Assembly (NCBI GenBank): GCA_021839985.1 | Contig: JAKBZO010000001.1 | Location: 676-64,675, forward strand | Direction of reading: 5' to 3' | Source of the DNA: a bacterium | GTDB taxonomy: Bacteria > Patescibacteriota > Minisyncoccia > Phycocordibacterales > SBAW01 | DNA length: 64,000 nt | Shown here: positions 19,566 through 39,739 of the stretch, piece after piece | How positions within the stretch are numbered: position 1 is the first letter of the stretch | Layout of the letters: each line of letters begins with the position of its first letter | Position numbers and translations under genes: made by a program | The notes under the pieces: generated by a model | Databases searched by the model: none | Told to the model about the DNA's origin: nothing | What the model saw: the letters and a program-made list of their open reading frames with translations, nothing else

Positions 19566-21482
19566 CTACAGCTTTCGGTTCCGCAACAATACCGCATTCA
19601 GCGCGACCGCCACGGTGCTGGCGGACATGAAGACCGCTGCCAGAGCCGGCTGCAAAACGATCCCCCGATACGCGAGCACACCGGCCGCAAGCGGGATCGC
19701 GATCACGTTGTATCCGGTCGCCCACGCGAGATTCTGGATCATTTTGCGATACGTGAGCTGCGAGAGTGTGACGACTTTCGCCACGTCTCGAGGGTCGTTG
19801 CGAACCAGGATGATCCCCGCAGATTCGATAGCGACCGTCGTGCCCGCACCGATCGCGATGCCAACATCCGCCTGCGTGAGTGCGGGCGCATCATTGACAC
19901 CATCACCGACCATCGCCACCTTCTTTCCCTGCGTCTGCAGAAGTTTTATCTTCTGTGCTTTTTCCTCCGGTTGCACTCGAGCGAAATAGTCGGTGATGCC
20001 GAGCTGCTTCGCGACGCTCGCGGCGACCTCGTGCGAATCTCCCGTGATCATCACCACGCCGATCCCGCGCCGCTTCAGAGAGTCGATCGCTTCTTTGGCT
20101 TCCGCGCGGACCCGATCGGCCACGGTGATGCTTCCGATGGCACGGCCATCTGCTTCGACCACCACATCATCGCCGCCGCGTTGGCCGACGAAGATCATCT
20201 TTCCTCCGACCGTCGCCTGCGCGCCGACGCCTCCGACGCGCTCGAAGTCTCGAGCTTCCAGAATAGTGGGGCCGCGTTTCTCTGCCTCCGCGATGATCGC
20301 TTTTGCGATCGGGTGTTCGGAGTGAGTCTCAACAGCAGCCGCAAGCATGAGCGCTTCATCCGAACTCGAAGTCGTGACGGCAAACTCTCCTTCGGTGAGC
20401 GTCCCTGTTTTATCAAAGACGACCGTATCGATCGTGCGCGCCTGCTCAAGCGCCCGACGCTCACGGATAAGAAAACCTTCCTGGGCGGCCATTGCAGTGG
20501 AGATCGCGACCACCAGCGGGATCGCGAGGCCGAGCGCGTGCGGACAGGTGATGACAAGCACCGACACCAAGCGTTCGGTTGCGGCACCGACCCCAGCAGC
20601 CAACGTCCAGGCAACAAACGTTATGACCCCCACCCCGATGGCAATAAGTGTCAGATAAAACGCTGCCTTGTCGGAAAGCATTTGCAGCCGCGACTTCGAC
20701 GCCTGCGCATCAGCGACCAGTCGCATGACGCCGGCAAGAAATGTTCCTTCGCCGACGTCGGTGACCCGCACAGTCAAACTTCCATTGCCATTGAGAGAGC
20801 CTGCAATAACCTTCATGCCTGCCGACTTGGGAACCGGCCGTGACTCGCCGGTAATGATCGATTCGTTCAACTCCGAGGAGCCTTCGATGATCGCACTGTC
20901 GGCCGGGACCTGTGCGCCCGGCCTCACCAGGACGATGTCTCCGACCTTAAGGTCGCCACGTGAGATGGTCTGCGCCACTCCATTCTTGATCACCTCAGCC
21001 CGGTCCGGCAGAAGTTTGGCCAGTTCCCGGAGCGCGCCTTGTGCGCCTTCAACCGAGCGCATTTCGATCCAGTGCCCGAGCAGCATAATGGCGATAAGCG
21101 AGGCGAGTTCAAACAAAAGATCATGCCCCGTTCCGAGGATGACCGAGACGAAACTGTAGGTATAGGCCGCCGTGATCGCGAGCGCGATGAGCGTCATCAT
21201 GCCCGGCTGCCGGTCTCGGAGCTCGGTGTACGCACCTCTCAGAAATATTGAGCCGCAATAGAAAAATGCCGCCGAGCCTAAGATGAGATCAAGGCAGTAT
21301 GACCCGGTGAATTGAGGTCCTTGAATGCCGAAGACGGACCGCGCCATTTCGGAGTAGAAAAATATCGGCACGCACAGAGCGACTGCGATCCAGAATTTTC
21401 TCAAGAGAGCCTCCGTATGATGACCTGCACGCTTGGCATGATTGCCATGGTCCATGTCCATATCCAAAGTATATCCCCACAT
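19566..21482 (-). CDS. Heavy-metal-translocating P1B-type ATPase
   Basis: A His-rich N-terminus ([17 protein letters not shown]), the CPH(A) motif in TM6 ([12 protein letters not shown]), DKTGTLT and [12 protein letters not shown]. Confidence 0.85.
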
Positions 21483-21539
21483 TTCGACGCAAGACTACCG
21501 AGAATCGGTCACGAGTTTCTAAGCATCCACCTCGCTCCA

Positions 21540-22253
21540 CTTGGCTAGCAACCTAAATTCTTTAAATCAGATACAATTAAAATATGTTTAAGAAAATATT
21601 CCTTTGGGCTTTTGATCTATACAAAAAACACAACATGGAACAGTACTACCTCCAAGGCAAAGCTTGGGGGCGTAAGGACCATAACGAGGATATTGTTCGG
21701 GCAATGGACCTGGTCTCTGACCGGCATTACAGACGATGTCTGGATGTAGGCGCCGGGTTGGGACACTACAGCGAGTATGCAGCAAAAATATGCGATGAGG
21801 TGGTTGCGACGGATATTTCAAGCGTAGCGATAGGATGGGCACAAAACCGTCTCCGCCACTTTAAAAACATACGATTTGAAGTAAAAAATCTTAGAGACGC
21901 TAGTGCTTCATGGGGGGGGTTCGATCTTATAATTTTAGCTGAAGTTCTCTATTATCTCGGCGACGAGCGATTCCCGGTTGACTTCAAGAAATTGCTTCGA
22001 CGGATAACCGATCTGGTACAAGAGAAAGGCCGCATTTTGCTCGTCAATTACGTATCGCCGGGACGGAATGAAGAACAACTCCGATCGTACGTAAATGATT
22101 TTGTCAAAATGGGCCTTTCTCTTGAAAAGAACGAGACGATCAAGGTTGGCCAAAAAACATTTCTTGCCGCAGTGTTGCGGAAATAATGTTATTCGCCGAC
22201 CTCGAACAGATTATATTAATGATCACTTTGGGGCGACTACAGGGATCGGTCAC
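21540..22253. mobile_element. AT-rich islet carrying the methyltransferase gene, bounded by atcggtcac repeats and ending at a degenerate copy of the tRNA-His 3' end
   Basis: atcggtcac occurs at 21505-21513 and 22245-22253. The sequence tggggcgactacaggga at 22229-22245 copies the tRNA-His 3' end at 22438-22455 (16 of 17 nt). Confidence 0.35.
21584..22186 (+). CDS. Class I SAM-dependent methyltransferase, located in an AT-rich islet
   Basis: The motif I LDVGAGLGHYS sits within a Rossmann fold. Local composition is markedly AT-richer than the flanking sequence. Confidence 0.6.
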   Translation: MFKKIFLWAFDLYKKHNMEQYYLQGKAWGRKDHNEDIVRAMDLVSDRHYRRCLDVGAGLGHYSEYAAKICDEVVATDISSVAIGWAQNRLRHFKNIRFEVKNLRDASASWGGFDLIILAEVLYYLGDERFPVDFKKLLRRITDLVQEKGRILLVNYVSPGRNEEQLRSYVNDFVKMGLSLEKNETIKVGQKTFLAAVLRK

Positions 22254-22437
22254 TCTCGTGGGTTTTTGCTTTGCTCTGCGAGCTCACAAAAACCTCACTC
22301 GCTCGACCCCCACCCGCCGCCTCCGCTCATTCGCTTCGCTCATGAACGGGCTTCGCGGCGGCTTGGTTCGATTCCCTGTAGTCGGCCCAGGAATATATCC
22401 TCGGCGCTCCGCACCTACGTCTTATTCTGGGCGACTA

Positions 22438-22512
22438 CAGGGAATCGAACCCTGATTGCGAGTTCCACAAACTCGAGTGTTAACCGTTACACCATAGTCG
22501 CCATACTACACA
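22438..22512 (-). tRNA. tRNA-His (anticodon GTG) with G-1
   Basis: The reverse complement folds as a cloverleaf with the anticodon loop tt-GTG-ga and the T-loop ggttcgattcc. The 3' end is ...tagtcgccca. Confidence 0.8.
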
Positions 22513-22518
22513 GGAAGC

Positions 22519-22555
22519 CGGAAGCCTCGTGCTTCCGGCTTCCTGTGTCTTGTGC
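22519..22555. terminator. Hairpin between tRNA-Leu and tRNA-His
   Basis: acaggaagccggaagcctcgtgcttccggcttcctgt is a perfect 15-bp stem. Confidence 0.45.
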
Positions 22556-22563
22556 CCAGGAGA

Positions 22564-22647
22564 GGATTCGAACCTCCATAGGATTGCTCCCGCTACCACC
22601 TCAAGGTAGTGCGTCTAGCCAATTTCGCCACCTGGGCAACTGTTGTT
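22564..22647 (-). tRNA. tRNA-Leu (anticodon GAG), long variable arm
   Basis: The reverse complement reads gcccaggtggcgaaattggctagacgcactacc-ttGAGgt-ggtagcgggagcaatcctatggaggttcgaatcctctcctgggca. Confidence 0.8.
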
Positions 22648-23367
22648 CAAACCTGCCATCCTCAAGACACGGTCGACCTTCATTCGCTTACGTGACAGGC
22701 AGATAGCACTATTACCATAATATATTGAGGGCAATAACTCAAGGGATTCATGCTTCGCGTATTTCAACTGAAAGACCGTCCTATTTGCATTTTGTGTAAT
22801 ATGGCCATTAATGCCTAGTCGGCGCTTGATCTCCGTTCTTAGCCAGGAGATATGCTTTTTACTTGCGGAGGCAAAAACTGTATAGAACATAAAACTAGCT
22901 TCCCATCGCGAATCCATGTATGAGTAAAAACTGCCATCCCCGTCGAATGACCCTCGCAAGAAATCAAAGAAATATCTGTTGGGAATCTTTACTGCGCCAA
23001 TGGTCTTCGACTTTGCACCAGATATGCCGATTGAACATAAAAAATTATGGAACAAGGTATCGCTGAACTGAACGTGTCCGCACAGGTCGCCATTCCCATT
23101 GCTTTTGGTGCTTAACTTTACTTGTATATTCAGGCAGCGGCAAAAATTATCAAGCTGTTCTTCATCTTTTGAAGTCAATGTTACATGCCGGCCATCGACA
23201 GACACATAACCGTCTGTTGCCAACAACCCAAGAGCGTAGGCAAAATTAGCAGACCACTTGATCTCCACTTTTCCTTTCGGTTTCGGACCACGCTTCCCTA
23301 TAAACAAATAGTAGCACGGCTCAAGGTAATAGCGTCTACCAATTTGTGGTATTAAAAAGACCGGCAT
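22615..23367 (-). CDS. LAGLIDADG homing endonuclease (double-motif, free-standing) in an AT-rich islet
   Basis: Two LAGLIDADG motifs are present: FAYALGLLATDGYV and FLRGSFDGDGSF. The ORF's last ~33 nt overlap the 5' part of tRNA-Leu. Low GC. Confidence 0.75.
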   Translation of the reverse strand: MPVFLIPQIGRRYYLEPCYYLFIGKRGPKPKGKVEIKWSANFAYALGLLATDGYVSVDGRHVTLTSKDEEQLDNFCRCLNIQVKLSTKSNGNGDLCGHVQFSDTLFHNFLCSIGISGAKSKTIGAVKIPNRYFFDFLRGSFDGDGSFYSYMDSRWEASFMFYTVFASASKKHISWLRTEIKRRLGINGHITQNANRTVFQLKYAKHESLELLPSIYYGNSAICLSRKRMKVDRVLRMAGLNNSCPGGEIG

Positions 23368-23381
23368 GTGCCGGTCTTTTT
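23355..23381. terminator. Intrinsic terminator downstream of rplS
   Basis: aaaagaccggcatgtgccggtcttttt is a hairpin with flanking A/T runs. Confidence 0.6.
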
Positions 23382-23400
23382 GTTGTAGTTGTGTTTGAAA

Positions 23401-23850
23401 TTATTCCTGCGCTGCCGTTTCTGCGACCGCCTCCGGTGCGGATACTTCCGCGACCTCTGCCGCTTCTTCGCTTGCGGTTGCCGAAGGAGAGAAAGCGCGT
23501 GCGCGGCGCATCTGGCGCTTCACGTCGCGCGCTGCTTTGGTGCGGATGAAATAGAGCTTCGCGCGGCGAACACGAGCGCGCTTGAGGATCTCGACCGAGT
23601 CGATGACCGGCGAGTAGAGCGGGAAGACCTTCTCGACGCCAACGCCGCTTGCCACCTTGCGCACCGTGAAGGTAGCGCCGGCTTCAGTGCCATGCTTGAC
23701 CGCGAGCACCAAACCTTCGAACGCCTGCTTGCGCGTCTTGCCTTTTTCGACGATCTTCTGCCACACGCGGACCGTATCGCCAGCGGCAATGCCGAGCGCC
23801 TGGCGCTCTTTCATGTCGACCGGTGAGATCTTTATTGCACTTTTTTGCAT
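23401..23850 (-). CDS. rplS: 50S ribosomal protein L19 with an Ala/Glu-rich C-terminal tail
   Basis: MQKSAIKISPVDMKERQALGIAAGDTVRVWQKIVEKGKTRKQAFEGLVLAVKHG... The start is at the internal Met (23850), and the ORF table's upstream extension is not coding. Confidence 0.85.
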   Translation of the reverse strand: MQKSAIKISPVDMKERQALGIAAGDTVRVWQKIVEKGKTRKQAFEGLVLAVKHGTEAGATFTVRKVASGVGVEKVFPLYSPVIDSVEILKRARVRRAKLYFIRTKAARDVKRQMRRARAFSPSATASEEAAEVAEVSAPEAVAETAAQE

Positions 23851-23935
23851 GATCGTGAGTATAGCACGGAAGCCTCGATTTGCAAATTGTTGCTTACGGG
23901 TGTCCGTCCAACCACCGTTCCCTAACGGCCAACTC

Positions 23936-23958
23936 ACCCCAGAGGGTTCCCCTCTGGG
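23936..23958. repeat. Palindrome ccccagagggttcccctctgggg, related to the folA insertion
   Basis: It shares the core agagggttcccctctg with 16017-16065. It sits just upstream of rplS. Confidence 0.55.
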
Positions 23959-24054
23959 GGCTACTATAACAAAAGGGTCCTTTTCCACTCCGCAAAAATT
24001 CTTGCAAAGTTTCAAAGGACCCAAGGTTCAAAATCGAACCAAAGTGTTGAAGGA

Positions 24055-24672
24055 TCAGCGAGAAACCACCTGGTCGTCGGCATCCCACCTGTCCGGGAGC
24101 GTCACCGAGTCGGCTTCGACGTACCAGCCGCTGTCGTCGGCGCCCCAGTACGCGTGCACGGCCCAGACGGTTCCCTTTGCATCGGCGATGTAGAAGATGA
24201 ACCACTTGGAGTGGTAGGCGGTCTTCAAGAATTCGAAGACATGCGCGAAGTACACGCGGGCTCTTTTCACCTTCGGGAAGTCCTTGTCGCCGAGCGCCAC
24301 GAGGATGTTCTCGTCCGACGATGAGTTAAGCAGTTTGCGCTGCTTCACTGTCATGGCGGGGACATTCTCTTCGATGAGGTCGCCGAAGTTTGCCATAAGG
24401 TTTTCGCCGAGGTTCCAGATCGGCAGCTCGCCGTTCACGTCCACCTTGAGCTTGTCGCGAGCAACGAAGCGTTTGACGGACGAGAATCTGATCGGCTCGC
24501 CTACTTCTTCGAGGAGACCCGCGAGGATCTTCTTGCTCGCCACCGACTCGACTTTCAATGTTTTCTCCCCACGCAAAATCGCGCGGGCTCCTTCTGCGCC
24601 GCCAACCATCTTGATGATGGCGTTAGTTTCGCCGCCCGTAAGGTCGGCCATTGCGAAACGATCATGAGACAT
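24055..24672 (-). CDS. Hypothetical protein
   Basis: A 205-aa ORF with no recognised motifs. Confidence 0.45.
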   Translation of the reverse strand: MSHDRFAMADLTGGETNAIIKMVGGAEGARAILRGEKTLKVESVASKKILAGLLEEVGEPIRFSSVKRFVARDKLKVDVNGELPIWNLGENLMANFGDLIEENVPAMTVKQRKLLNSSSDENILVALGDKDFPKVKRARVYFAHVFEFLKTAYHSKWFIFYIADAKGTVWAVHAYWGADDSGWYVEADSVTLPDRWDADDQVVSR

Positions 24673-24741
24673 AGTGCTCTCCTTTGGGCTTAGTTGCCCT
24701 TCAGATGTTTCCTCTCACCCGAGGCAGGCGCTATCGCGTGT

Positions 24742-24799
24742 CATTCGCCACAGCAGAGAATGGCCTAATGAATAAGCCGTTTTCTGCTGTGGCGAATGC
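24742..24799. promoter_or_regulatory. 15-bp perfect inverted repeat (cattcgccacagcag ... ctgctgtggcgaatg) with a 27-nt loop, between the RluA-family gene and the 24055-24672 gene
   Basis: A perfect inverted repeat with no U-tract after it; an operator-like or RNA stem-loop. Confidence 0.3.
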
Positions 24800-24849
24800 T
24801 GATCCGCTATCAAAGAACGATTAACGCAATTGAAGCATGTTTATATAGT

Positions 24850-25599
24850 TTAGTCAAGTTTTTGTTCTGCGTCATGTATCTGTCGCTCTGCTTCCTGGAA
24901 ATCAGCTGGGAGCTGGGCTTCAAAAGACACCTGCTGACCGGTTGTCGGGTGAATAAAGGTGAGCGAGAGTGCGTGGAGCGCCAGGCGGTCGAAACCGAAA
25001 AGTGATTGTTTGCCGCGGCCGTAGAGCGGATCGCAGACGATCGGATGCTGGATGGCAGAGAGATGCACGCGGATCTGATGCGTGCGGCCGGTCGTCGGAA
25101 AGACCTCAAGATAGCTGGCGCCATCATTGCCCTTCCCCCATCGCGCCATCGTGCGGAATGTCGTCTGCGCTTCGCGAAGCGCGCCGTGGGTATCACGCAC
25201 GCCGCGGTGCGAGCCTGAACCGCGCGTGCGGCCGATCGGTTTGTTGATGATGCCGCGATCGTCCGCGATCACACCGTAGACGAACGCGCGATAAATTTTA
25301 CGTACTTCGTGTTCTGAAAACTGTCCGCGCAAACTCTCAAATGCTTCATGCGTCAGTGCCGCGACCATGATGCCGGAGGTGTCGCGGTCCAATCGATGCA
25401 CAATGCCGGGGCGGATCACTTCCGTGCCATCACCCTGCACTTCTTTCTCCCCCACCTCAGCGATCTGCGGAAACTTCTGCACGAGCCACGCCGCGAGCGT
25501 TCCTTCGTGCGGCACATGAGCCGCCGCATGCACCGGCATGCCAGTCGGTTTGTTGATGACGATGATCTGGTCGTCTTGGTAGAGAATAGTTGGTTCCAT
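24850..25599 (-). CDS. RluA-family 23S rRNA/tRNA pseudouridine synthase
   Basis: The catalytic motif HRLDRDTSGIMV and the RluA-family core are present. The likely start is MEPTILYQDD at 25599. Confidence 0.8.
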   Translation of the reverse strand: MEPTILYQDDQIIVINKPTGMPVHAAAHVPHEGTLAAWLVQKFPQIAEVGEKEVQGDGTEVIRPGIVHRLDRDTSGIMVAALTHEAFESLRGQFSEHEVRKIYRAFVYGVIADDRGIINKPIGRTRGSGSHRGVRDTHGALREAQTTFRTMARWGKGNDGASYLEVFPTTGRTHQIRVHLSAIQHPIVCDPLYGRGKQSLFGFDRLALHALSLTFIHPTTGQQVSFEAQLPADFQEAERQIHDAEQKLD

Positions 25600-25760
25600 G
25601 GTGCCATTGTCGCTAAAGAAACGAATTGCGCAAGCCCTCGCAAGATCTTGGATGCAGCACGAGGCGCGCAAGCAAGGCGGCGCGAGGCGTACTTGCTTGG
25701 TACGGTGAGTGCCGTTTTGCGAAGCGCAACGCAGTGATGCGCCAAGATCTTGCGAGAGCC

Positions 25761-27599
25761 TTACACGGTAATGATCTGATGCTCAACGAGGCGGCGGTAT
25801 GGTTCGCAGGTTTCCACGAGCTCTGCGTGCTTGCCCACGCCGACCATGCGGCCGCCATCCATCACGATGATCCGGTCCGCGTCACGCACGGTCGAAAGGC
25901 GGTGCGCGATGATAATGCCGGTGCGACCCTTGAGCGCTTCTCCCATCGCTTCGTGGATGATCGCTTCATTCTCGGCGTCAAGGTTGGAAGTGGCTTCGTC
26001 GAAGATGAGAATGTCGGGCTCCTGCAGAAGCGCTCGCGCGATGCCGACACGCTGGCGTTCGCCGCCGGAAAGCTTTACGCCGTTCTCGCCGATCAGCACG
26101 TCGAATCTTTTCTCACCGAGGCGATCATAGAATTGGTCGACGCGCGCCTTGCGCGAAACGTCATCAAGCTGCGCATCGGTGATCGTCTCAGGGTGCGCCG
26201 CAGCGAAGGTCATATTGTAGCGCAGCGCATTGTCGAACAGCTCGACTTGCTGCGGCACATAACCGACACGGCGCAGGAAACTCTGCTGGCTCACGTCGCG
26301 CAGATCATGCCCATCAACGAGAACACTGCCCTGATCCGGATCATACCCGCGCAACAGCAGGTGGACGATCGTGGTCTTGCCCGCACCGGAGTGCCCAACG
26401 ATCGCGGCGGTCTCCCCCGCCTCGATCGTGAACGACACATCGCGCAGGATCTCTTTGGACACGTCATCCTCTTCATTCCCCTCGCCAGCCGTTTCATCGT
26501 CGTCAGACGATACTTCTGGCGTGGCTTCGGCAGGCGCGATCGGATACGCGAACGAGACGTTGCGAAATTCGATGCGGCCGCTGATGCTTCCGAGCTCTAC
26601 CGCGCCAGCCTTGTCCTTCACCGCCGGCTCGCGATCAAGCGCATCGTGATAGATCTGAATATCAGAAAACTGCGTGATCATCTGCCGCTGCGCCCAGCCA
26701 AGATTGCCGACATTACCGAACACGCTCCCCATCCAGCCGATGAGCATCACGATCGAGCCGGGCGACTGCGCGCCGATCGAGACCAGATACACGCCGACCA
26801 TGAGCGCGAACACCTGTCCGAAGTAGATGAGCGTCGTGCGCCAGTAGTACGATGACAGATAATCGAACCAGATCGCCCGAGACGTTTGCGCCTTATCTTC
26901 GTACAACGTGTCATATTCGCGAACGATGGCGTCTTCTTTTGCCGAGAGTTTGATGACTTTTACATTGCGTAGCGCCTCGTTGAAATATTTCGACTGATCG
27001 TTCCATCGTTTGCGATTTTCTTTCATGGTCGGTAAGAACGTCGTGTTGTAGCGATACTGTGCCGCTACGTATATCAATGAGAAGAAGAGCACAACGCCGC
27101 CGAGTAAAGGACTTACGAATGTGATCGCAGCTGTCGCCAGAATGATCTGGAGCAAGAATGGCAGGAGCGAGTACACGCTCGTGTTGATGAATGCTATGAG
27201 CGCGTCACTGCCCTTATTCACCACCGAGAGGCGGAGGCCCGAATGTTCATTGATGTGTTGCCCAAGAGAAAAACGAAACACACGCTCCAGCGTGTGCGTC
27301 GCTATGAATTGCGGCATGCCGTAATCAAGATGCGCTTGCTCATATCGTTCGCGTAGGTAGTTGAGAATGTTGGCAACGAGATAGACGCCAAGGATGATGC
27401 CGCCGAGCATGAACGAATGTGAAAGCGGCGCGTGCGTGGCGAGATCGTCAATGATCTTACCCTGCAGATATGGAAGGAACAGAAAGAGCACTTGACCGCC
27501 GACCAGGAGCACGAACAAGATCGTGAGTATGCCGAAAAACGGCCGGTACAGCGTACGCAGCATGGCGAGCGGTTTGGTTTTTGGTGTTGTTTCAGTCAT
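25761..27599 (-). CDS. ABC transporter of the fused permease + ATPase (exporter type, MsbA/ABCB-like) kind
   Basis: A six-TM domain followed by Walker A GHSGAGKTT, the signature LSGGERQRVGIARAL and Walker B ILIFDEATSNLD. An acidic insert EATPEVSSDDDETAGEGNEEDD is present. Confidence 0.85.
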   Translation of the reverse strand: MTETTPKTKPLAMLRTLYRPFFGILTILFVLLVGGQVLFLFLPYLQGKIIDDLATHAPLSHSFMLGGIILGVYLVANILNYLRERYEQAHLDYGMPQFIATHTLERVFRFSLGQHINEHSGLRLSVVNKGSDALIAFINTSVYSLLPFLLQIILATAAITFVSPLLGGVVLFFSLIYVAAQYRYNTTFLPTMKENRKRWNDQSKYFNEALRNVKVIKLSAKEDAIVREYDTLYEDKAQTSRAIWFDYLSSYYWRTTLIYFGQVFALMVGVYLVSIGAQSPGSIVMLIGWMGSVFGNVGNLGWAQRQMITQFSDIQIYHDALDREPAVKDKAGAVELGSISGRIEFRNVSFAYPIAPAEATPEVSSDDDETAGEGNEEDDVSKEILRDVSFTIEAGETAAIVGHSGAGKTTIVHLLLRGYDPDQGSVLVDGHDLRDVSQQSFLRRVGYVPQQVELFDNALRYNMTFAAAHPETITDAQLDDVSRKARVDQFYDRLGEKRFDVLIGENGVKLSGGERQRVGIARALLQEPDILIFDEATSNLDAENEAIIHEAMGEALKGRTGIIIAHRLSTVRDADRIIVMDGGRMVGVGKHAELVETCEPYRRLVEHQIITV

Positions 27600-27637
27600 A
27601 AATCATGAGTGGGGGTGCACGCTGTAGGACTCGGCCA

Positions 27638-27726
27638 AGCGCTCGCTCGTCGCCGTCGCTCCTCGCTCCGCTCGGCCCTGCTCGCGCGACCCAGTCTGCT
27701 GACTGGGTGCCCGCGCTCGCTTTCGA
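27638..27726. repeat. Copy 1 of a ~90-nt structured repeat (CGCTC-rich arm plus a hairpin with covarying stem)
   Basis: aagcgctcgctcgtcgccgtcgctcctcgctccgctcggccctgctcgcgcgaccc-agtctgctgactgg-gtgcccgcgctcgctttcg. The second copy at 32739-32837 differs mainly by compensatory changes in the inner stem. Confidence 0.6.
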
Positions 27727-27800
27727 GCCCCTCAGGGTGCACAAAATTAAGCTCCGATACGCTCACGCGTATCGGAGCTTAATTTTGTGCACCCTGAGGG
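27724..27800. repeat. Long palindrome (~37-bp arms) made of the tRNA-Val 3' end plus a trailer and their inverted copy
   Basis: gagcccctcagggtgcacaaaattaagctccgatacg-ctcacg-cgtatcggagcttaattttgtgcaccctgaggggctc. Confidence 0.6.
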
Positions 27801-27860
27801 GCTCGAACCCCCGACCTTCTCAGTGTAAATGAGTTGCTCTACCAACTGAGCTAAGGGTGC
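27788..27860 (-). tRNA. tRNA-Val (anticodon TAC)
   Basis: The reverse complement reads gcacccttagctcagttggtagagcaactca-ttTACac-tgagaaggtcgggggttcgagcccctcagggtgca. Confidence 0.8.
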
Positions 27861-28065
27861 AAAAACATACCGCGAACACCGCTAAATTTACAATAAAAAC
27901 TTGTGTTGAGCAATGTTTTTCGTTCGTTTGTGCCCTCGGGAGGGATGATCCCGCAGTTACTAACTCGCTTGTTCGTGCTGCGCACTCCAAGCCCGTAAGT
28001 ACTGCTGGACGCGGCTCGCTATTTTGCTCGCCGAGGGCGCTCGCAAAATATGCTCCGCCGGTTCG

Positions 28066-28092
28066 ATTCCTCCCGCACGCAAAGCAGTTTGC
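28066..28092. repeat. Hairpin gcacgcaaa-gcagt-tttgcgtgc; the same stem with an inverted loop recurs at 33604-33631
   Basis: Both copies are followed by ctccg(g/a)g. Both lie about 40-70 nt 3' of a minus-strand tRNA-Arg gene. Confidence 0.5.
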
Positions 28093-28127
28093 GTGCTCCG
28101 GGGGCACACACTCACTACGTTCGTTTG

Positions 28128-28199
28128 TGCCCCCACGAGGAATCGAACCTCGATCAGCGGCTTAGAAGTCCGCAGTTTTATCCATTAAACTACAGGGGC
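28128..28199 (-). tRNA. tRNA-Arg (anticodon TCT)
   Basis: The reverse complement reads gcccctgtagtttaatggataaaactgcgga-ctTCTaa-gccgctgatcgaggttcgattcctcgtgggggca, with one A-G mismatch at the base of the anticodon stem. Confidence 0.7.
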
Positions 28200-28503
28200 T
28201 TTTAGTCTTTCCAAAACATCCTAATTGTATATAGGTCTTTCTTCTGTGACAATTTGCGCACCTTACCTCACATTTTTCCGTCTCCGCCAAAACGGATCCC
28301 CAGGAATAATGTCCTGACAGCATTTGTGATGCTTTCTTAAATTTTACGGAGGGGACCACGTGGTCAAAGTCTAACACGATAGGATCACTCTCCCCACAAT
28401 CAACACATTTTTTTGTAGAAAGCAGGGCCAACAACTTTTCTCTGACACGTATGCGGTGTCTTTTTTGAGCGGCGTATAAATCCTCTTTCTTTTTATAGGG
28501 CAC
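28162..28503 (-). CDS. Small HNH endonuclease in an AT-rich islet; its 3' end overlaps the tRNA-Arg(TCT) 5' half
   Basis: The HNH motif is CVDCGESDPIVLDFDHVVP...CANCHRRKT. The segment 28200-28500 is low in GC. Confidence 0.7.
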   Translation of the reverse strand: MPYKKKEDLYAAQKRHRIRVREKLLALLSTKKCVDCGESDPIVLDFDHVVPSVKFKKASQMLSGHYSWGSVLAETEKCEVRCANCHRRKTYIQLGCFGKTKSPCSLMDKTADF

Positions 28504-28545
28504 CTAGGGATCATAGCAAATGATTCTAACCCTGCCAAGCACCAC

Positions 28546-28875
28546 CTATCTCGACGGATCAGGAACGGAAACTGTCGATGTTGCCAGGAGCTGCACATGC
28601 TCTGCACTCAGGCCGCTGGCATGGGAGAGTGCCTCGTCGAGCTGCGCCACACTCGGGCCGCGCAGGTTCGCAACCGCCGTCCCGTCTGTTGTAGGATTTT
28701 CAATGATCGATACATACATCCACAGATCGAAGACCCCGAATAAAAAGAGTATCGACAATGACGCCACCGCGATGATAAGCCAGTCGCGATGCGGATGAGC
28801 AAGCGAGCCGCAGCAGCGCTGTGCATCTGCGTGCTTTGGAGTCAGTATGGCGATGAGTGATCGAAGTGTCGGCAT
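28546..28875 (-). CDS. Small single-TM membrane protein at the distal end of the pilMNO operon; hypothetical
   Basis: The TM segment is WLIIAVASLSILFLFGVFDLWMY. The likely start is MPTLRSL (28875), and the ORF-table start overlaps pilO. Confidence 0.4.
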   Translation of the reverse strand: MPTLRSLIAILTPKHADAQRCCGSLAHPHRDWLIIAVASLSILFLFGVFDLWMYVSIIENPTTDGTAVANLRGPSVAQLDEALSHASGLSAEHVQLLATSTVSVPDPSR

Positions 28876-28888
28876 AGTGTTGTAATCG

Positions 28889-29590
28889 TTATGGCGTCTC
28901 GAACGAAACAGCAGAGAGGTTGAACGAGCCGCTCCACGTGCCGGCACCTGTCCCCGTCGCTCCAGCTGCACCGACGGCGCCTGTTTCCAGACCTAGGTTA
29001 AGCGATGACAGCACGATCCCCTGAGAGAGGGTCTCAACGAGGCGGATGAATCGCTCGCATGAAGAAAAGCTTCCGGAGATCCGCACGGTCATAGTGAATG
29101 ATCCTGGAGCGTTTCCGTGCGGCGGAACGACCCCGACATTGGAGACTGTCGTGTCCACGCCGGCCGTTTTCCCGAGACCCTCGATCCCGCCAATGAAATC
29201 TGCACCGCCTCCTTGAGGAATGGGGAGCGTCTGCAACTCAGCGCGTTCTTTCTTGGTCAAGTCCAGCAGCCGCATCGCGGAAGAAAGCATCTGTTGCTCC
29301 TGCATTTTATCTCCCAGCGTCTGTGCTGCCGTTTGTGCTCCGTTGCTCGCCGTGTAGACGCCATACCATATGGCACCAAAGAGCGTCGCGGAAAGCGCGA
29401 AGAGTACGCCCGCTGTCGCAAGATGCACGACCGAGGCTACCCTCTCGCCTCCCTGGCTAGAGGGGAGCGCCGGGCTGAGACTCCTCGCGTCAGAAAAATG
29501 ATCGATGTTTTGCTCTCCACCAGCACCACGCGCGCTCGCGAGAGTGCCACTATTGACGCGCTGAGTATGTGTACGAAAAGGCCAGGTCAT
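28889..29590 (-). CDS. pilO: PilO-like type IV pilus assembly protein
   Basis: A TM helix, a coiled-coil and a C-terminal PilO-type domain. Its position follows pilM-pilN. The start was taken at MTWPF (29590). Confidence 0.5.
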   Translation of the reverse strand: MTWPFRTHTQRVNSGTLASARGAGGEQNIDHFSDARSLSPALPSSQGGERVASVVHLATAGVLFALSATLFGAIWYGVYTASNGAQTAAQTLGDKMQEQQMLSSAMRLLDLTKKERAELQTLPIPQGGGADFIGGIEGLGKTAGVDTTVSNVGVVPPHGNAPGSFTMTVRISGSFSSCERFIRLVETLSQGIVLSSLNLGLETGAVGAAGATGTGAGTWSGSFNLSAVSFETP

Positions 29591-29603
29591 AGGTATAACA
29601 ACA

Positions 29604-30149
29604 TTACGACTGCGGAAGCGTGTACGTGACCGTAATGACGAAAGGTGTCTGATCCGCAACCGCCAACGCCTCCGGCGGTAAGACCACGCCGCTTACATTC
29701 GGCACCTGCATGAGACGCTGCTTGAATGCGAGCATGTCATCGCGCGTGTCGGCGACGCCAGAAAGATCCACGGTCGCAGAAGAAGCGGTGGCGGTGAGAT
29801 CGATCCTTTGGATCTTTATCGTCGTATCCCGCACCCCAAGCAAAGAATCTATGACCGTCGATGGTCGCGGGATCGCGGCGCTGTCATGAAGCGCTTTGTA
29901 GATCGCGAGCGCTGACGAACCGTTCTTTGAAGCAGCGACGAGGTTTGGTTGAGAGATGGATAGGTCGGTGACCGACGCTTGTAGGAGCAGGCTATTTTGC
30001 GCCACGCCAGCGCGGAAGTATGCCGGCGCGAGCAAGCCCCCGGCAATGACCAGTACCGCCGCTCCAGCAAGAAGCGAGACCGCGGCAAAACGCATGCGGT
30101 AGTCCGCTCGCAGGCGCTCTCTAGTATCATGTGGCAGAAGATTGATCAT
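29604..30149 (-). CDS. pilN: Type IV pilus assembly protein PilN
   Basis: The MINLLPHDTRERL start is typical of PilN. A single TM segment is followed by a periplasmic domain. Confidence 0.65.
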   Translation of the reverse strand: MINLLPHDTRERLRADYRMRFAAVSLLAGAAVLVIAGGLLAPAYFRAGVAQNSLLLQASVTDLSISQPNLVAASKNGSSALAIYKALHDSAAIPRPSTVIDSLLGVRDTTIKIQRIDLTATASSATVDLSGVADTRDDMLAFKQRLMQVPNVSGVVLPPEALAVADQTPFVITVTYTLPQS

Positions 30150-31252
30150 AGTGAATTGTGTGCTGCGGCACGCAGGGCAAGACCGATGACCGTCGCATAG
30201 CGCAGGGAATCATTCTTGTGGATCGGCGGTATGATCCCTCCTCCGCCGAGCGCCGGATGGAGGTCGGCGACGCGGCACGGCACATGCATCGAACGCGCCA
30301 CATGTTCAACAAAACCGCGCATGAGTGCGTTGCCGCCATAGAGCACGATCGATGAGATCGGCAGGAGCGGATCCCCGTGCGCGATGCGTAATTGCCAATA
30401 CACCGACACGCGATCAAGCACCGCGGTCACACCCTTCGCATACCCGAGGCATGGGTGCACGATAGAGCTGTCTTCTGCGAGTCCTTCTTCGTATTTGAGA
30501 CGCGACAGCTCGGCGCTTATCCATGCAGCATCTCCCCTACCCTCTTCTTTGCCTTTGAGAGAATCAAACAAAGCATTGTCGAGCGTTTCACTTCCAGCGA
30601 TCGACGTGGTAAAGCGCACTGCATCATTTTGAACGACGGAGAGCGTCGTCGCGGAAAGTCCCAGATCGACGATGATGCATGCGCCGCGCATGGTCCGAGG
30701 AAGGATCGCTCGCAGCGCTGCCTGCGGTTCAAGTTCGAATGACAACGGAGAGAAGCCTGCACCGCGCAGCGCATCCGTATACTGCTGTGCGATAGTCTCC
30801 GGGAAAGCGGTGACCACGACGGAGCGCGTCGTGGCACCAGACTCAGCGGAGACGACTTCGCAATCAAACACGACTTCAGCGGGCGCCAGCGGCACCTGTT
30901 CGGAAAGCGCCACCTCGACCGAGCGCGAAAGAGGCACTGACGGGTCCACCGTGGAGACCGTGTCAAACAAATATCCCTTTTGTTCGGGAAGCGACGCGTA
31001 GGTAAAAGTGAACCCGCAGCGCTCGCGCACTTGCGAAAGCGCGCGCACCAGCGCTTCTTTATTGCGAATATCGCCGTCGACGACCGCACCCGAGGGCAGC
31101 GGCACTTCACCGAAGCGGGCCACTTCACGCCGCTTCGTAAGCACATCGAATGAAAAGTATTTGATCGTGTGTTCGGAGATGTCTATCCCGCCGCCGTCCA
31201 TGGCGAGCAAACGCGGAACCGGAAAGAGGCGCGGCAAAAGGTGCGAGGACAT
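30146..31252 (-). CDS. pilM: Type IV pilus assembly protein PilM (actin-like ATPase fold)
   Basis: 368 aa. The N-terminal ...GIDISEHTIKYFSFDV..., the central ...IVDLGLSATTLSVV... and the C-terminal ...LYGGNALMRGFVEHVA... regions are arranged as in PilM/FtsA-like proteins. Confidence 0.75.
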   Translation of the reverse strand: MSSHLLPRLFPVPRLLAMDGGGIDISEHTIKYFSFDVLTKRREVARFGEVPLPSGAVVDGDIRNKEALVRALSQVRERCGFTFTYASLPEQKGYLFDTVSTVDPSVPLSRSVEVALSEQVPLAPAEVVFDCEVVSAESGATTRSVVVTAFPETIAQQYTDALRGAGFSPLSFELEPQAALRAILPRTMRGACIIVDLGLSATTLSVVQNDAVRFTTSIAGSETLDNALFDSLKGKEEGRGDAAWISAELSRLKYEEGLAEDSSIVHPCLGYAKGVTAVLDRVSVYWQLRIAHGDPLLPISSIVLYGGNALMRGFVEHVARSMHVPCRVADLHPALGGGGIIPPIHKNDSLRYATVIGLALRAAAHNSL

Positions 31253-31285
31253 ATCATATTCATTATAGCAGGTATCGATCGCCCG

Positions 31286-31879
31286 CTATCTCATGATCAC
31301 TCTCAATACCGCCCAAACGATCACGAGACCGATGACCAGTGCGAATGCTCCGAAGTAGCGGCGCATGCCTTCAAAGGTTTTCTCCCCGAAGTGCTCCACG
31401 ACGTACGCGACGAGGAAGACGCGACCGATGCGACCGGCGCCGAAGCCGACAATGAAGGGAAGAAATGGTATGTGCAGAAAACCGGAGAGGATCACGAATA
31501 CTTTGTCCGGCACCGGCGCGAACATGAGGAACATCATGACGAGTAAGATATTCCCCGCCAAAAAAGCGTGCGCGGTGCGGAATGAACGGTGAAGATCGAA
31601 GTAGCGGACCGCGGGCGCGCCGAACCAATGGAACAGCGCCACACCGATGAGGTAGCCTACGATAGCGCCCGCGATCGACGCGGCGGCAGTGATAGCGGCA
31701 TAGCGTTTCCAGCGAGAACGGTCGGCAAGCGTAAAGGCCACCATGACACTCTCCGGCCACAGCGGCAGAAAGATCGGTTCAAGGAATGCGAATAGCGCCA
31801 ACCACCACGAACTGTGCGGTGAGCGCAGATGATCGACGAACCACTGCCATCGATGCGGCTGTTGCGATCCGGTATTCAT
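31286..31879 (-). CDS. DedA/YqaA-family membrane protein
   Basis: 197 aa with four or five TM helices. WWLALFAFLEPIFLPLWPESVMVAFTLA resembles the DedA-family re-entrant motif. Confidence 0.5.
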   Translation of the reverse strand: MNTGSQQPHRWQWFVDHLRSPHSSWWLALFAFLEPIFLPLWPESVMVAFTLADRSRWKRYAAITAAASIAGAIVGYLIGVALFHWFGAPAVRYFDLHRSFRTAHAFLAGNILLVMMFLMFAPVPDKVFVILSGFLHIPFLPFIVGFGAGRIGRVFLVAYVVEHFGEKTFEGMRRYFGAFALVIGLVIVWAVLRVIMR

Positions 31880-31903
31880 ATATTAGAAGCAGTTTCTTGG
31901 GTA

Positions 31904-32269
31904 TCAACCAACCCGGGCTCCTGCAGGCGCTGCTGGCGCTTCAAGGAGAGCAAAGGCTCCCTCCTCATTGCTTGCTGCCAAGATCATGCCCTGGCTCTCA
32001 AGACCCATGAGCGTGCGCGGCTTGAGGTTGTACACGAACGCGACGCGCTTACCGACAAGCACCGCATGGTCGGGAAAATAACGCGCGATGCCGGAGAGGA
32101 TCTGCCGCACTTCTCCAGCGCCGAAGGACACCATGAGCCGTAGCAGTTTGTCCGAGCCTTCGATAGGTTCGACCGAAATGATCTCGCCAATGCGAATATC
32201 GGTACGATGGAATTCATCGATCGAGATCGATGCAACTTCTTCGTTGATAGTGAAGTCATTCATGTTCAT
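31904..32269 (-). CDS. tRNA-binding domain protein (CsaA/Trbp111/EMAP-like, OB fold)
   Basis: DIRIGEIISVEPIEGSDKLLRLMVSFGAGEVRQILSGIARYFP...VAFVYNLKPRTLMGLESQGMILAA matches the Myf/tRNA-binding domain. Confidence 0.75.
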   Translation of the reverse strand: MNMNDFTINEEVASISIDEFHRTDIRIGEIISVEPIEGSDKLLRLMVSFGAGEVRQILSGIARYFPDHAVLVGKRVAFVYNLKPRTLMGLESQGMILAASNEEGAFALLEAPAAPAGARVG

Positions 32270-32706
32270 TCGTGCGCTCCGGTCGAGTTCATTCTATCAA
32301 GGAAGCTCTGCAATATCACGGCTGCGGCTGACGCGTCGAGTTTTTCTTGAGCGGATGCTCCCTGCTTGCGAGCGTTGCGCGGATGTTCTCCTCGCCCGAC
32401 ACGCGAAGCCTGCGCGCTTGTCATGAACTCTGGCTCGAAGATGATCGGGGTGCCTGCCGCTCGGCCAAGTGCGTCAGCGAACGAGCGGACCCGCGCCATG
32501 ACCGGATTGTCGCGGCCGGAGAGATCTTTCGATTCGCCGATCACGAACGCTTTCGCCTCTCGCTCGCGCGCGAGCGCCGATGCACGTGCAAGCGCATCTT
32601 TCTCACTGGCCACTTCAAGCGGAAATGCGACGCGGTCTCCCTCGTCGGACACGGCGAGTCCTACACGCTTGGTTCCATAATCGATACCGATATACATATG
32701 ATTCAT
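32266..32706 (-). CDS. ruvX: Holliday-junction resolvase-like protein RuvX/YqgF
   Basis: YIGIDYGTKRVGLAVSD is the YqgF N-terminal signature. The true start is probably MYIGID (32697). Confidence 0.85.
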   Translation of the reverse strand: MNHMYIGIDYGTKRVGLAVSDEGDRVAFPLEVASEKDALARASALAREREAKAFVIGESKDLSGRDNPVMARVRSFADALGRAAGTPIIFEPEFMTSAQASRVGRGEHPRNARKQGASAQEKLDASAAAVILQSFLDRMNSTGAHE

Positions 32707-32738
32707 TCCCAGAAATGCGGATGGGGTGAGATTCGGCT

Positions 32739-32837
32739 AAGCGCTCGCTCGTCGCCGTCGCTCCTCGCTCCGCTCAGCCCTACTCGCGCGACCCGCCGTG
32801 CTCGGCGGGTGCCCGCGCTCGCCTTCGGATCTCACCC
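32739..32837. repeat. Copy 2 of the ~90-nt structured repeat, preceded at 32716-32736 by a 20-nt direct copy of the tRNA-Ser 3' end
   Basis: Identical to copy 1 over aagcgctcgctcgtcgccgtcgctcctcgctccgctc and ctcgcgcgaccc...gtgcccgcgctcgc. The inner stem is gccgtgctcggcgg here versus agtctgctgactgg in copy 1. The sequence tgcggatggggtgagattcg is repeated at 32716 and 32892. Confidence 0.6.
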
Positions 32838-32891
32838 AATCGCGCAATGGCAATCTTCAAATAGTCGCGGGGACTGTTTGAACGAGCCACC

Positions 32892-32979
32892 TGCGGATGG
32901 GGTGAGATTCGAACTCACGACACCTTGCGGTGTGGCGGTTTTCAAGACCGCTGCCTTAGACCACTCGGCCACCCATCCA
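32892..32979 (-). tRNA. tRNA-Ser (anticodon TGA), long variable arm
   Basis: The reverse complement reads ggatgggtggccgagtggtctaaggcagcggt-ctTGAaa-accgccacaccgcaaggtgtcgtgagttcgaatctcaccccatccgca. Confidence 0.8.
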
Positions 32980-33102
32980 GTACCATACAACTTACAACAA
33001 AAGTGGCCTTGTTGGAAGCGACACGCATCTTCCCATGAAGAAGGTGCGACATTCTTCGTGCTCGATCACACTGCTTAAGATTTTGTTTGATATACTTAAC
33101 GC

Positions 33103-33597
33103 ATGGATCCTGTTCTTAATGAGCACGCCGACCAGGTGCAGGCTATTCATTGGCGCACACCGACGCACGTTCACACCGCGCGCTCCGTCGACTGGTTCTG
33201 GGCGCTCGGCATCATAGCGATCTGCGGTGCCATCATCGCGGCTTGGCTCGGCGACGCACTCTTCGGCGTCATCATCGTGGTCGCCGCCGCGGTCATCGGC
33301 ATGATCTCAGCGCGGGAGCCGCGCGAACACGATGTCACCCTTCAAGAAACGGGCGTCGTGGTCGATCACGAGCTATATCCTTTTCATGCTATTCGTTCAT
33401 TCTGGATAGAATACGAAGGAATGCCTCTGCCTAAAATGTATCTTTCTACGAACGCGCTTATCCATCCGCATGTGATCGTCTTGCTTCCGTCTGAAGATTA
33501 TGTCGACGAAGTGCGCGACTTTCTTGAAATGTACGATGTGAAAGAAGAAGCTCAGCACTCTGCGGGGACCATGCTCGCGCGCATCTTCGGGTGGTGA
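33103..33597 (+). CDS. Hypothetical two-TM membrane protein
   Basis: 164-aa ORF. The TM helices are WFWALGIIAICGAIIAAWLG and VIIVVAAAVIGMI, followed by a soluble C-terminal domain. Confidence 0.45.
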   Translation: MDPVLNEHADQVQAIHWRTPTHVHTARSVDWFWALGIIAICGAIIAAWLGDALFGVIIVVAAAVIGMISAREPREHDVTLQETGVVVDHELYPFHAIRSFWIEYEGMPLPKMYLSTNALIHPHVIVLLPSEDYVDEVRDFLEMYDVKEEAQHSAGTMLARIFGW

Positions 33598-33677
33598 TCT
33601 GGAGCGCACGCAAACTGCTTTGCGTGCTCCGAGAGGGTAAGCGAAAAAAGCGCTCGTTGCGCTCTTTTTCGTACTTG

Positions 33678-33749
33678 TCCTCTCGGTAGGAATCGAACCT
33701 ACATTACAAGCTCCGCAAGCTTGCGTTCTATCCATTGAACTACGAGAGG
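33678..33749 (-). tRNA. tRNA-Arg (anticodon GCG)
   Basis: The reverse complement reads cctctcgtagttcaatggatagaacgcaagc-ttGCGga-gcttgtaatgtaggttcgattcctaccgagagg. It is followed on the minus strand by the hairpin terminator agcgaaaaaagcgctcgttgcgctctttttcg (33640-33672). Confidence 0.8.
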
Positions 33750-33901
33750 ATGTGTCCTCACACTACACCATAATGACAAAAATTCAAATGGACCTTATGG
33801 AGTGCCATTCTTAGCCTCTTGGTGCTATACTTTTCCCAGAAAGTTCTCGATCTGCTTGTAACGAGCAGATCTTCACGATCGACTCACCATAGGGAGGCAT
33901 C

Positions 33902-35068: not shown

Positions 35069-35225
35069 GAGTCATGCAACAGCGCAGACACCCCCGAGGT
35101 GCGCCAGCATTATTGGCACGCCTCGGGGTTTATTTTTGCCTCACAGGGTTTCATATCTATATGGACCTGGGACAAGAGTGGGCGTAAACTTGCACCGGCG
35201 TCAAGAAACCGTACAGTGAACAGAC

Positions 35226-35298
35226 GTCCTCGTAGTTCAATGGATAGAATATCTCCCTCCGAAGGAGGTGATGTGAGTTCGATTCTCGCCGAGGACAC
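35226..35298 (+). tRNA. tRNA-Arg (anticodon CCG)
   Basis: gtcctcgtagttcaatggatagaatatctcc-ctCCGaa-ggaggtgatgtgagttcgattctcgccgaggaca. It is followed by the terminator hairpin aaagaaagggcgccgcttcgcggcgccctttcttt (35322-35357). Confidence 0.8.
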
Positions 35299-35383
35299 AA
35301 AACGAACGCAGTATCACACAAAGAAAGGGCGCCGCTTCGCGGCGCCCTTTCTTTGTGTTCTGCTTTGTGTTCTGTATAAAAAA

Positions 35384-35641
35384 TCACTTGGTCTTTGCTG
35401 CCATACGCGCAACCTGAGACTTCTTGCGAGCGGCGGTATTCTTTTTGATGATGCCGCGCTTTGCCGCTTTGTCGATCGCCTTATAGGCTGCCGCGACCGC
35501 CTCGACGCCCGCCTTGCCATCCTTTGCTCCGGTGCGAACATCCTTCACAGAGTCGCGCATATCGCGCAGGCGCGACACGTTCATGACGCGGCGGCGCTTG
35601 GTCTGGCGCAAAGCTTTTTTCGCTGATTTCGTGATTGCCAT
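35384..35641 (-). CDS. rpsT: 30S ribosomal protein S20
   Basis: MAITKSAKKALRQTKRRRVMNVSRLRDMRDSVKDVR... is canonical S20. Confidence 0.9.
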   Translation of the reverse strand: MAITKSAKKALRQTKRRRVMNVSRLRDMRDSVKDVRTGAKDGKAGVEAVAAAYKAIDKAAKRGIIKKNTAARKKSQVARMAAKTK

Positions 35642-35724
35642 GCGAGCATCGTACTACATAAGTGTGCTTTGTGCAACAAAAGAAAAGGGGCGCCGCAAGG
35701 GGCGCCCATTCAGGAAGAACTGCT

Positions 35725-36354: not shown

Positions 36355-36466
36355 GACGATTCCTTTCGTCAAAGAATTTCGAAAAACTACCTGAAGTAAC
36401 GATACCATATAAAATATAAAAAGCAAGAGAGCGGACAAAAGCCGCCAGAGGATATAAGCTGTAAGA

Positions 36467-37057: not shown

Positions 37058-37060
37058 TAT

Positions 37061-38335: not shown

Positions 38336-38389
38336 CGGGGCGGTCCACCACTACTTACTAGCTTCTTTTAACTGGTCTATACTATCTTC

Positions 38390-39316: not shown

Positions 39317-39334
39317 ATAGATCAACAAAACACC

Positions 39335-39736: not shown

Positions 39737-39739
39737 AAT

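Follow-up and report, generated by a model that had tools for sequence, protein, structure and literature searches.

Two endonuclease genes of different families, each set directly against an intact transfer RNA (tRNA) gene, were found in a 64,000-nucleotide (nt) chromosomal stretch of a Candidatus Paceibacterota bacterium (Patescibacteria) assembled from a metagenome (assembly GCA_021839985.1, contig JAKBZO010000001.1, positions 676 to 64,675; hereafter, the window). A LAGLIDADG open reading frame (ORF; 22615-23367, minus strand) runs into tRNA-Leu(GAG) (22552-22637, minus strand), and a small HNH ORF (28162-28503, minus strand) runs into tRNA-Arg(TCT) (28127-28199, minus strand). Comparison with their relatives indicates that each is probably a free-standing homing-endonuclease cassette dedicated to a single tRNA gene of Paceibacteria-type Patescibacteria. 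Their properties are those of homing-endonuclease genes: the same insertion site is used in many genomes, orthologous empty sites exist, and similarity among the LAGLIDADG copies is decoupled from that among their hosts. They are not intron- or intein-encoded, as neither interrupts a tRNA. Both tRNA genes are continuous and intact (Rfam tRNA scores of 50.4 bits for tRNA-Leu and 61.2 bits for tRNA-Arg), and an Rfam scan of positions 21000-41000 returned only tRNAs and noise, with no model for a group I intron or other known RNA at E ≤ 1. Thus, the first-pass annotation of this DNA was borne out in describing the two genes as free-standing rather than intron-encoded, and as oriented like the adjoining tRNA genes, all four lying on the minus strand.

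The product of the LAGLIDADG ORF is classified by its motifs and profile matches as a two-motif monomeric LAGLIDADG homing endonuclease. It matches the Pfam family LAGLIDADG_3 (PF14528) at 7.6e-10 (39.4 bits, cut-off 22.5 bits), and its profile match in the PDB is 2dch, deposited as a putative homing endonuclease (5.5e-8). An alignment of 31 sequences contains 46 invariant columns, D52/G53 and D142-G145 among them, and the window protein retains every family-invariant residue, including both DG motifs and the acidic residues. More than 2,200 database relatives were found at 54-63% identity, typically about 220 amino acids (aa) long, and an identical protein is present on GCA_027346695.1; the organism name Candidatus Paceibacterota is attached to a protein that clusters with the window DnaA. 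The second ORF carries the HNH signature C-x2-C...D-H...N...C-x2-C-H, with C33/C36, D47/H48, N84, C82/C85, and H86 invariant in a family alignment whose mean column identity is 61%. It matches three PHROG HNH families (1.7e-21, 1.1e-19, and 2.9e-13), and its match to Pfam HNH (PF01844) falls below threshold (E 0.006, 17.1 versus 21.4 bits); by motif and PHROG profiles, the product is assigned as an HNH (His-Me finger) endonuclease. An AlphaFold model of this protein (predicted local distance difference test score of 80) has HNH effectors (Cap5) as its best Foldseek matches in the PDB, at nonsignificant E values of 0.7-2; no PDB sequence-profile match was obtained for it, and neither protein has a match in NCBIfam. 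Database relatives of the HNH protein number more than 1,700 at 65-78% identity. Both ORFs are intact: no internal stop or frameshift occurs in the 250-aa LAGLIDADG ORF or in the 113-aa, GTG-initiated HNH ORF.

A scan of one genome per species recovered at least 541 LAGLIDADG loci, and all those with taxonomic names in their titles belong to Patescibacteria lineages, except for two probable misbinnings. Among the best 80 of these loci, to which the counts of neighboring tRNA and rplS genes apply, a same-strand tRNA-Leu(GAG) adjoins the gene in 76, with its first nucleotide at -19 to +49 nt relative to the match end, the remaining four being contig ends or an odd tRNA call; rplS lies immediately upstream in 70 of the 80. 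Of 70 loci, 51 have the true stop codon 0-15 nt ahead of tRNA +1 and 12 have it within the tRNA; tight abutment is thus the rule for this family and overlap incidental. Several contigs bearing relatives begin or end near the cassette. As for a phage vector, IMG/VR and GenBank phages hold only relatives of ≤35% identity to the LAGLIDADG family.

For the HNH family, a same-strand tRNA-Arg(TCT) lies downstream of the gene in 24 of 29 close relatives, all on metagenome contigs. The gene overlaps its tRNA in 20 of 22 close relatives, the overlap being 10 nt in 15 of the 22, with the stop codon supplied by tRNA U8-A9-G10; overlap is thus the rule for this family. The window ORF, the family protein of which is about 103 aa, enters the tRNA in a different frame from its relatives and consequently runs on for 38 nt (28162-28199) to a TAA in the anticodon loop, so that its last 12 sense codons and stop are tRNA-Arg sequence. 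The first-pass annotation had placed both stop codons 33-38 nt inside the tRNAs; this figure is right for the HNH gene, but the LAGLIDADG ORF shares only the first 23 nt of tRNA-Leu (22615-22637), its last seven sense codons and stop being tRNA sequence. Among viral HNH loci, 29 of 80 have a same-strand tRNA immediately downstream, most often Arg(TCT). In high-GC bacteria, large tRNA arrays, and viral contigs, more distant HNH relatives (L121-L171 and L198-L277; 38-56% identity) were observed directly upstream of many other tRNAs (Gly-CCC, Pro-TGG, Thr-CGT, Asp-GTC, Gln-CTG, Arg-TCG, and Lys-TTT).

The LAGLIDADG cassette is recognized by a short element upstream of the gene, a degenerate copy of the D-loop-to-anticodon part of tRNA-Leu(GAG), termed here the psi-tRNA core. 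In the window, this core, AATTGGTAGACGCTATTACCTTGAG (23320-23344, minus strand), begins 8 nt past the rplS terminator hairpin (23353-23382, minus strand), which stands immediately upstream of the cassette, and its last 23 nt match the family consensus exactly. The core measures 23-27 nt, similar in length to a LAGLIDADG recognition site. It was found ahead of the gene in 63 of 74 loci and is ≥90% conserved at most positions; it is better conserved than the adjacent genuine tRNA-Leu genes and does not vary along with them. In about 1 Mb of fetched sequence, all 73 core matches lie at LAGLIDADG gene starts, and none occurs at empty sites or in genuine tRNAs. Past GAG, the tRNA similarity fades in the family consensus into an extended -10 element, TGnTATAAT. 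A -10-like hexamer is present in 60 of the 63 loci with a core, and in 46 of the 63 it lies 6-9 nt from the start codon; because this spacing leaves no room for a ribosome-binding site, the arrangement suggests that the LAGLIDADG messenger RNA (mRNA) is leaderless. The core itself is possibly an operator or a homology arm of the cassette.

The window copy departs from this family layout. The mechanically called ORF starts at an ATG (23367) in the loop of the rplS terminator hairpin, the only in-frame ATG available, and its first ~22 codons consist of the terminator and the tRNA-derived motif, outside the family protein, which is conserved from 23301. At the canonical start, the window has ATA (23301-23299), compared with ATG in 54 of 63 relatives. 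An extended -10-like element, TGcTACTAT (23308-23316, minus strand), continues the core, and it was not flagged in a generic promoter scan because its spacer to a -35-like TAGACG is 19 nt. The spacer of this cassette has a 2-nt insertion. With its ATA start and longer spacer, the window copy may be poorly expressed, and its expression signals may be decaying, despite an intact ORF and an exact core. Another copy of the family, in locus L078 (match 2501-3172), has an in-frame stop in the conserved core of the protein, lacks the upstream tRNA-derived motif, and is a decaying copy, a pseudogene. In locus L014, a complete 5′ half of tRNA-Leu(GAG), from acceptor strand to anticodon and with its own upstream TATAAT, was observed about 100 nt upstream of the match start (696), followed by the LAGLIDADG gene; the downstream tRNA-Leu is intact and has a different D arm and anticodon stem from the upstream half. 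This locus looks like a recent insertion and has the arrangement expected if the LAGLIDADG gene entered a tRNA gene and the tRNA was replaced. A LAGLIDADG subfamily (L013, L015, L020, L031, L035, L045, L050, L056, and others) carries CTTGACA 7-8 nt before tRNA-Leu +1 (region -15 to -1), often containing the TGA stop codon.

The HNH cassette has a similarly compact upstream region. A promoter-like TTGGCA-17-TATGAT with a TG extension (28510-28538, minus strand) has its -10 hexamer ending 6 nt before the GTG start and would yield a leaderless or near-leaderless mRNA. Upstream of the -10 box is the motif GGTTAGAA (28524-28531, minus strand), conserved in 24 of 27 loci; in these 27 loci, it is followed by TATAAT or TACAAT in 19, with the start codon 6-10 nt further on in 22, and a GTG start, as in the window, is found in five. 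The window HNH cassette looks complete. For both cassettes, cotranscription of endonuclease and tRNA is plausible, since there is no room for a terminator between them, each ORF runs up to or into its tRNA, and relatives have terminators on either side of the unit. Terminators bracket the cassette-tRNA unit in the window as well as in L006 and L008.

That these cassettes are mobile is suggested by how they are distributed. The rplS-tRNA-Leu(GAG) site lacks a LAGLIDADG gene in L093, L094, L102, L105, and L108, none of which has the psi-tRNA core, and the tRNA-Arg(TCT) site lacks an HNH gene in L008, L019, L028, L031, L037, L083, and L085. The presence of one gene is independent of that of the other, and both were found together only in the window and L095. 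Across 62 loci (1891 pairs), pairwise identity of the LAGLIDADG proteins and of the adjacent L19 proteins is nearly uncorrelated (r=0.09): LAGLIDADG identity is about 59% whether L19 identity is 30% or 80%, and just 56-61% between hosts with 90-93% identical L19. A weak vertical signal is detectable nonetheless (Mantel r=0.10 versus L19, p=0.03). Recurrent horizontal replacement at a fixed site agrees with these data better than does strictly vertical descent. Among the sites without a cassette, the HNH-less tRNA-Arg(TCT) site of L008 has a 12-nt exact copy of the tRNA 5′ end (1233-1244 versus 1311-1322) located 79 nt upstream, which may be the footprint of a lost cassette. A 108-aa ORF at a Yonathbacteria tRNA-Arg site, considered as a candidate HNH homologue, proved to be unrelated, so that site is empty as well. 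By eye, promoter-like hexamers stand 20-40 nt before the tRNA in two of the empty LAGLIDADG sites (TTGAAA-17-TATGAT in L105 and TTGAAA-17-TATAGT in L094).

Base composition also sets the two genes apart from their surroundings. The AT-rich islets claimed in the first-pass annotation were confirmed, with GC content of 0.41-0.45 in both (300-nt windows) against a mean of 0.568 (standard deviation, 0.047) for the whole window. GC content at third codon positions (GC3) is 0.48 in the LAGLIDADG gene and 0.42 in the HNH gene, compared with 0.66-0.78 in neighboring host genes, about 0.2-0.3 below host genes. Low GC as sole proof of recent transfer was rejected: the lower GC is seen throughout the family and shifts with that of the host, and, judged by eye, both proteins contain much Lys, Phe, and Tyr.

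The mechanism proposed here starts from two compact layouts. In the LAGLIDADG cassette, which is placed between the rplS terminator and the tRNA, a 23-27-nt copy from the tRNA-Leu(GAG) 5′ half leads into a -10 box, often TG-extended, with the start codon 6-9 nt on, and then into a gene of about 220 aa ending ≤15 nt from, or overlapping, +1 of the intact tRNA-Leu(GAG). In the HNH cassette, GGTTAGAA is followed by TGnTATAAT, a start codon 6-10 nt on, and a gene of about 103 aa, the stop codon of which usually comes from tRNA-Arg(TCT) U8-A9-G10. From host to host, nothing at these sites is conserved other than the tRNA, which would therefore have to contain the recognition site. Each enzyme would cut the matching tRNA gene in a cassette-free genome, and repair templated by a cassette-bearing copy would bring in the cassette along with the donor tRNA, or at least its 5′ part. 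In the LAGLIDADG cassette, the left end derived from the tRNA would function as a homology arm, as an operator through which the enzyme acts on its own promoter, or as both, and the tRNA would be transcribed through the cassette. A fuller version can be offered only tentatively, in which the LAGLIDADG cassette is an intron-free invader of a tRNA gene with tRNA-derived arms at both ends, the left one doubling as promoter and operator; by replacing the tRNA promoter or 5′ half, it would make expression of the host tRNA run through the selfish gene, and the HNH mRNA would additionally lose its stop codon to RNase P. Within that version, it is conceivable, if equally doubtful, that the two ends act as portable homology arms working in any species, with a frozen 5′-half copy forming the left arm and the tRNA itself the right one.

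Several observations weigh against the proposal of mobile, tRNA-specific cassettes through which the tRNAs are expressed. An intact resident tRNA still holds any target that lies inside the tRNA. No difference in tRNA sequence was found between occupied and empty sites (edit distance to the psi-tRNA core of 6.5 versus 5.6, with five empty sites), and tRNA identity, whether full-length, 5′ half, or 3′ half, is equally weakly related to LAGLIDADG identity and to L19 identity (Mantel r of 0.13 and 0.11); with correlations of about 0.1 being uninformative, the comparison does not demonstrate co-conversion of the tRNA with the LAGLIDADG gene. In the HNH family, no tRNA-Arg-derived repeat of ≥10 nt was found upstream of the cassette in 25 loci. 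The assignment of a -35 element is weak, with spacers of 17 or 19 nt, and the canonical ATG is missing from the window LAGLIDADG copy. Promoter-like hexamers are enriched in the last 120 nt of LAGLIDADG ORFs (84 of 118 sites), and a promoter-like TTGTCA-17-TACAAT (28224-28252, minus strand) inside the HNH ORF, 24 nt before tRNA-Arg, could drive that tRNA independently, suggesting that the tRNAs may not depend on the cassette promoter. The window LAGLIDADG copy has no such hexamers in its last 120 nt, and in other loci many appear, from reading the junctions by eye rather than from a per-hit tally, to fall on conserved MYYN codons (ATGTATTATAAT), on stop codons, or on Lys-rich tails. Finally, endonuclease GC tracks host GC (slope 0.69, r=0.83) while staying 4-13 points lower, suggesting long residence with partial amelioration, so that much of the inheritance may be vertical.

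Taken further, the signs of long residence could mean that the genes are domesticated: anciently acquired and vertically inherited nucleases or DNA-binding proteins that serve the host, for example, by providing a single-copy tRNA with its promoter or by regulating that promoter, and that no longer home. Very strong purifying selection (46 invariant LAGLIDADG columns and 61% mean HNH column identity), a position fixed in hundreds of genomes, an ultraconserved, operator-like upstream motif, the GC correlation with the host, and the weak but significant Mantel correlation with L19 would all be expected under this explanation. It is nevertheless judged unlikely, since presence and absence are patchy and independent among related genomes, empty sites lack the psi-tRNA core, LAGLIDADG identity stays on its plateau irrespective of L19 identity, GC3 is still well below that of the host, and at least one copy, in L078, is a pseudogene. 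Somewhat less improbable, though still doubtful, is a regulatory function for the overlap itself. If endonuclease and tRNA share a single transcript, RNase P cleavage at tRNA +1 would strip the stop codon and leave a nonstop mRNA with a product tagged by transfer-messenger RNA (tmRNA), keeping endonuclease levels low and inversely coupled to tRNA maturation. The recurrent U8-A9-G10 stop and the prevalence of overlap among close HNH relatives are consistent with such coupling, as are a junction without space for a separate terminator or promoter and the same 10-nt overlap annotated between an HNH gene and tRNA-Met in mycobacteriophage PegLeg. Yet this chain of events is pure inference; with just 12 of 70 LAGLIDADG ORFs overlapping and their tails unconserved, overlap is incidental in that family, and it may merely mark the ends of gene-conversion tracts.

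That the cassettes are what remains of tRNA introns or of integrative elements of the integrase type, with the half-copy of the tRNA representing a former 5′ exon or a duplicated att site, is very improbable. The anticodon loop is a known crossover site of tRNA-targeting integrases, and the half-copy ends in or just past that loop. Bacterial tRNA group I introns also insert there, at positions 33/34 to 36/37 (PMC13011429). On the other hand, no group I intron model was matched at E ≤ 1 and the downstream tRNA is complete. Integrase-type elements duplicate the 3′ part of a tRNA, whereas the piece duplicated beside the LAGLIDADG gene is the 5′ part and the motif does not vary with the local tRNA. 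Of the listed ORFs of 21000-30500, the six scanned against Pfam gave no integrase or recombinase match. Homing-endonuclease cassettes remain the preferred reading over all three of these alternatives.

Free-standing endonucleases also reside in phage tRNA gene clusters, as exemplified by T4 SegB and the T5 F-Tfl enzymes. The present genes resemble these in being small, non-intron genes directly beside same-strand tRNA genes, and they differ in lying on a bacterial chromosome at single-copy tRNAs rather than in a phage tRNA array. The HNH gene shares both adjacency and phage homologues with this class, whereas the LAGLIDADG gene shares adjacency only, having no close phage homologues. HNH genes have been reported in mycobacteriophage and mycobacterial tRNA arrays, e.g., PegLeg gp102 (PMC5966550), and the PegLeg gene, with its 10-nt overlap with tRNA-Met, is a homologue of the window HNH gene (38% identity over 91% of the query). 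The occurrence of HNH genes in tRNA arrays has thus been published before, and the window HNH gene adds a new chromosomal member to the phage and array kind of tRNA endonuclease; it differs in that its close family is fixed on tRNA-Arg(TCT), with a layout of GGTTAGAA, extended -10, and leaderless start that has not been described.

The LAGLIDADG gene is related in fold family (PF14528) to the monomeric two-motif endonucleases of archaeal rRNA introns, the closest solved relative being PDB 2dch, and in both fold family and host phylum to the LAGLIDADG genes of rRNA insertions in the candidate phyla radiation (CPR) (PMC11270868). In contrast to both, it is located outside its putative target gene, upstream of an intact tRNA, and with a tRNA-derived promoter region. 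The tRNA introns of Patescibacteria (PMC13011429) share with the present cassettes the phylum and a target in tRNA genes at the anticodon loop, and some of them carry HNH endonucleases; here, there is no ribozyme and the tRNA is uninterrupted. That study reports no free-standing endonuclease at tRNA-Leu(GAG) or tRNA-Arg(TCT), and the two papers (PMC13011429 and PMC11270868) cover solely intron- or insertion-encoded endonucleases of Patescibacteria. A full-text literature search returned no account of the tRNA-derived promoter motif or of a LAGLIDADG family that is free-standing and devoted to tRNA-Leu(GAG), and both families are apparently undescribed. The endonuclease I-TevI represses its own expression by binding an operator that lies over its promoter and is similar to its homing site. 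The 23-27-nt tRNA-Leu-like core fused to the -10 box would be a comparable target-like sequence over the putative promoter of the LAGLIDADG gene; the enzyme family differs.

To our knowledge, free-standing homing endonucleases are well studied in phages and organelles and hardly at all in bacterial chromosomes. Two families at the same two single-copy tRNA genes in hundreds of CPR genomes form a natural system with many occupied and empty alleles, which can be used to study intron-free spread, the sparing of an essential tRNA, and expression in minimal-genome organisms. Of relevance to enzyme engineering, the LAGLIDADG enzymes of about 220 aa would also form a collection of compact nucleases whose target is predictable and conserved. 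For annotation, it is relevant that gene-calling programs run these ORFs on into tRNA genes and the tRNA-derived motif.

The genes around the two cassettes are arranged on the minus strand in the order of a hypothetical gene, the HNH ORF (28503-28162), tRNA-Arg(TCT) (28199-28127), a 266-nt spacer, tRNA-Val, an ABC transporter gene, RluA, another hypothetical gene, rplS, the LAGLIDADG ORF (23367-22615), tRNA-Leu(GAG) (22637-22552), and tRNA-His. A perfect 18-bp hairpin (22508-22548, minus strand) between tRNA-Leu and tRNA-His is possibly a processing or termination signal of the unit. The first-pass annotation had further described the two tRNA clusters as hot spots for mobile DNA, a view that is upheld by additional elements adjoining the same tRNAs. 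Directly 3′ of tRNA-His (22231-22428) and of tRNA-Arg(TCT) (27921-28126) are GC-rich, strongly structured elements of about 197 nt, bounded by direct copies of the tRNA 3′ end (15/15 nt for one and 26 nt at 85% for the other, with start-to-start spacings of 198 and 197 nt, respectively). The two elements have a common layout and a GGAATCGAACC block, with a fold z-score of -9.8, and the tRNA-His element also contains an inverted copy (22365-22387, 96% complementary). An AT-rich S-adenosylmethionine (SAM)-methyltransferase gene (21584-22186, plus strand; GC3 of 0.47) is located some 200 nt past tRNA-His; it corresponds to a 744-nt insertion or deletion relative to a 99%-identical sister assembly (L001 4138-4881 versus L002) and constitutes a third variable islet at this tRNA cluster. 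Elsewhere, the lowest GC of the window (0.39) occurs at 58551-59200, between dnaN (57641-58738, minus strand) and dnaA (58947-60281, minus strand), and this segment is probably the replication origin.

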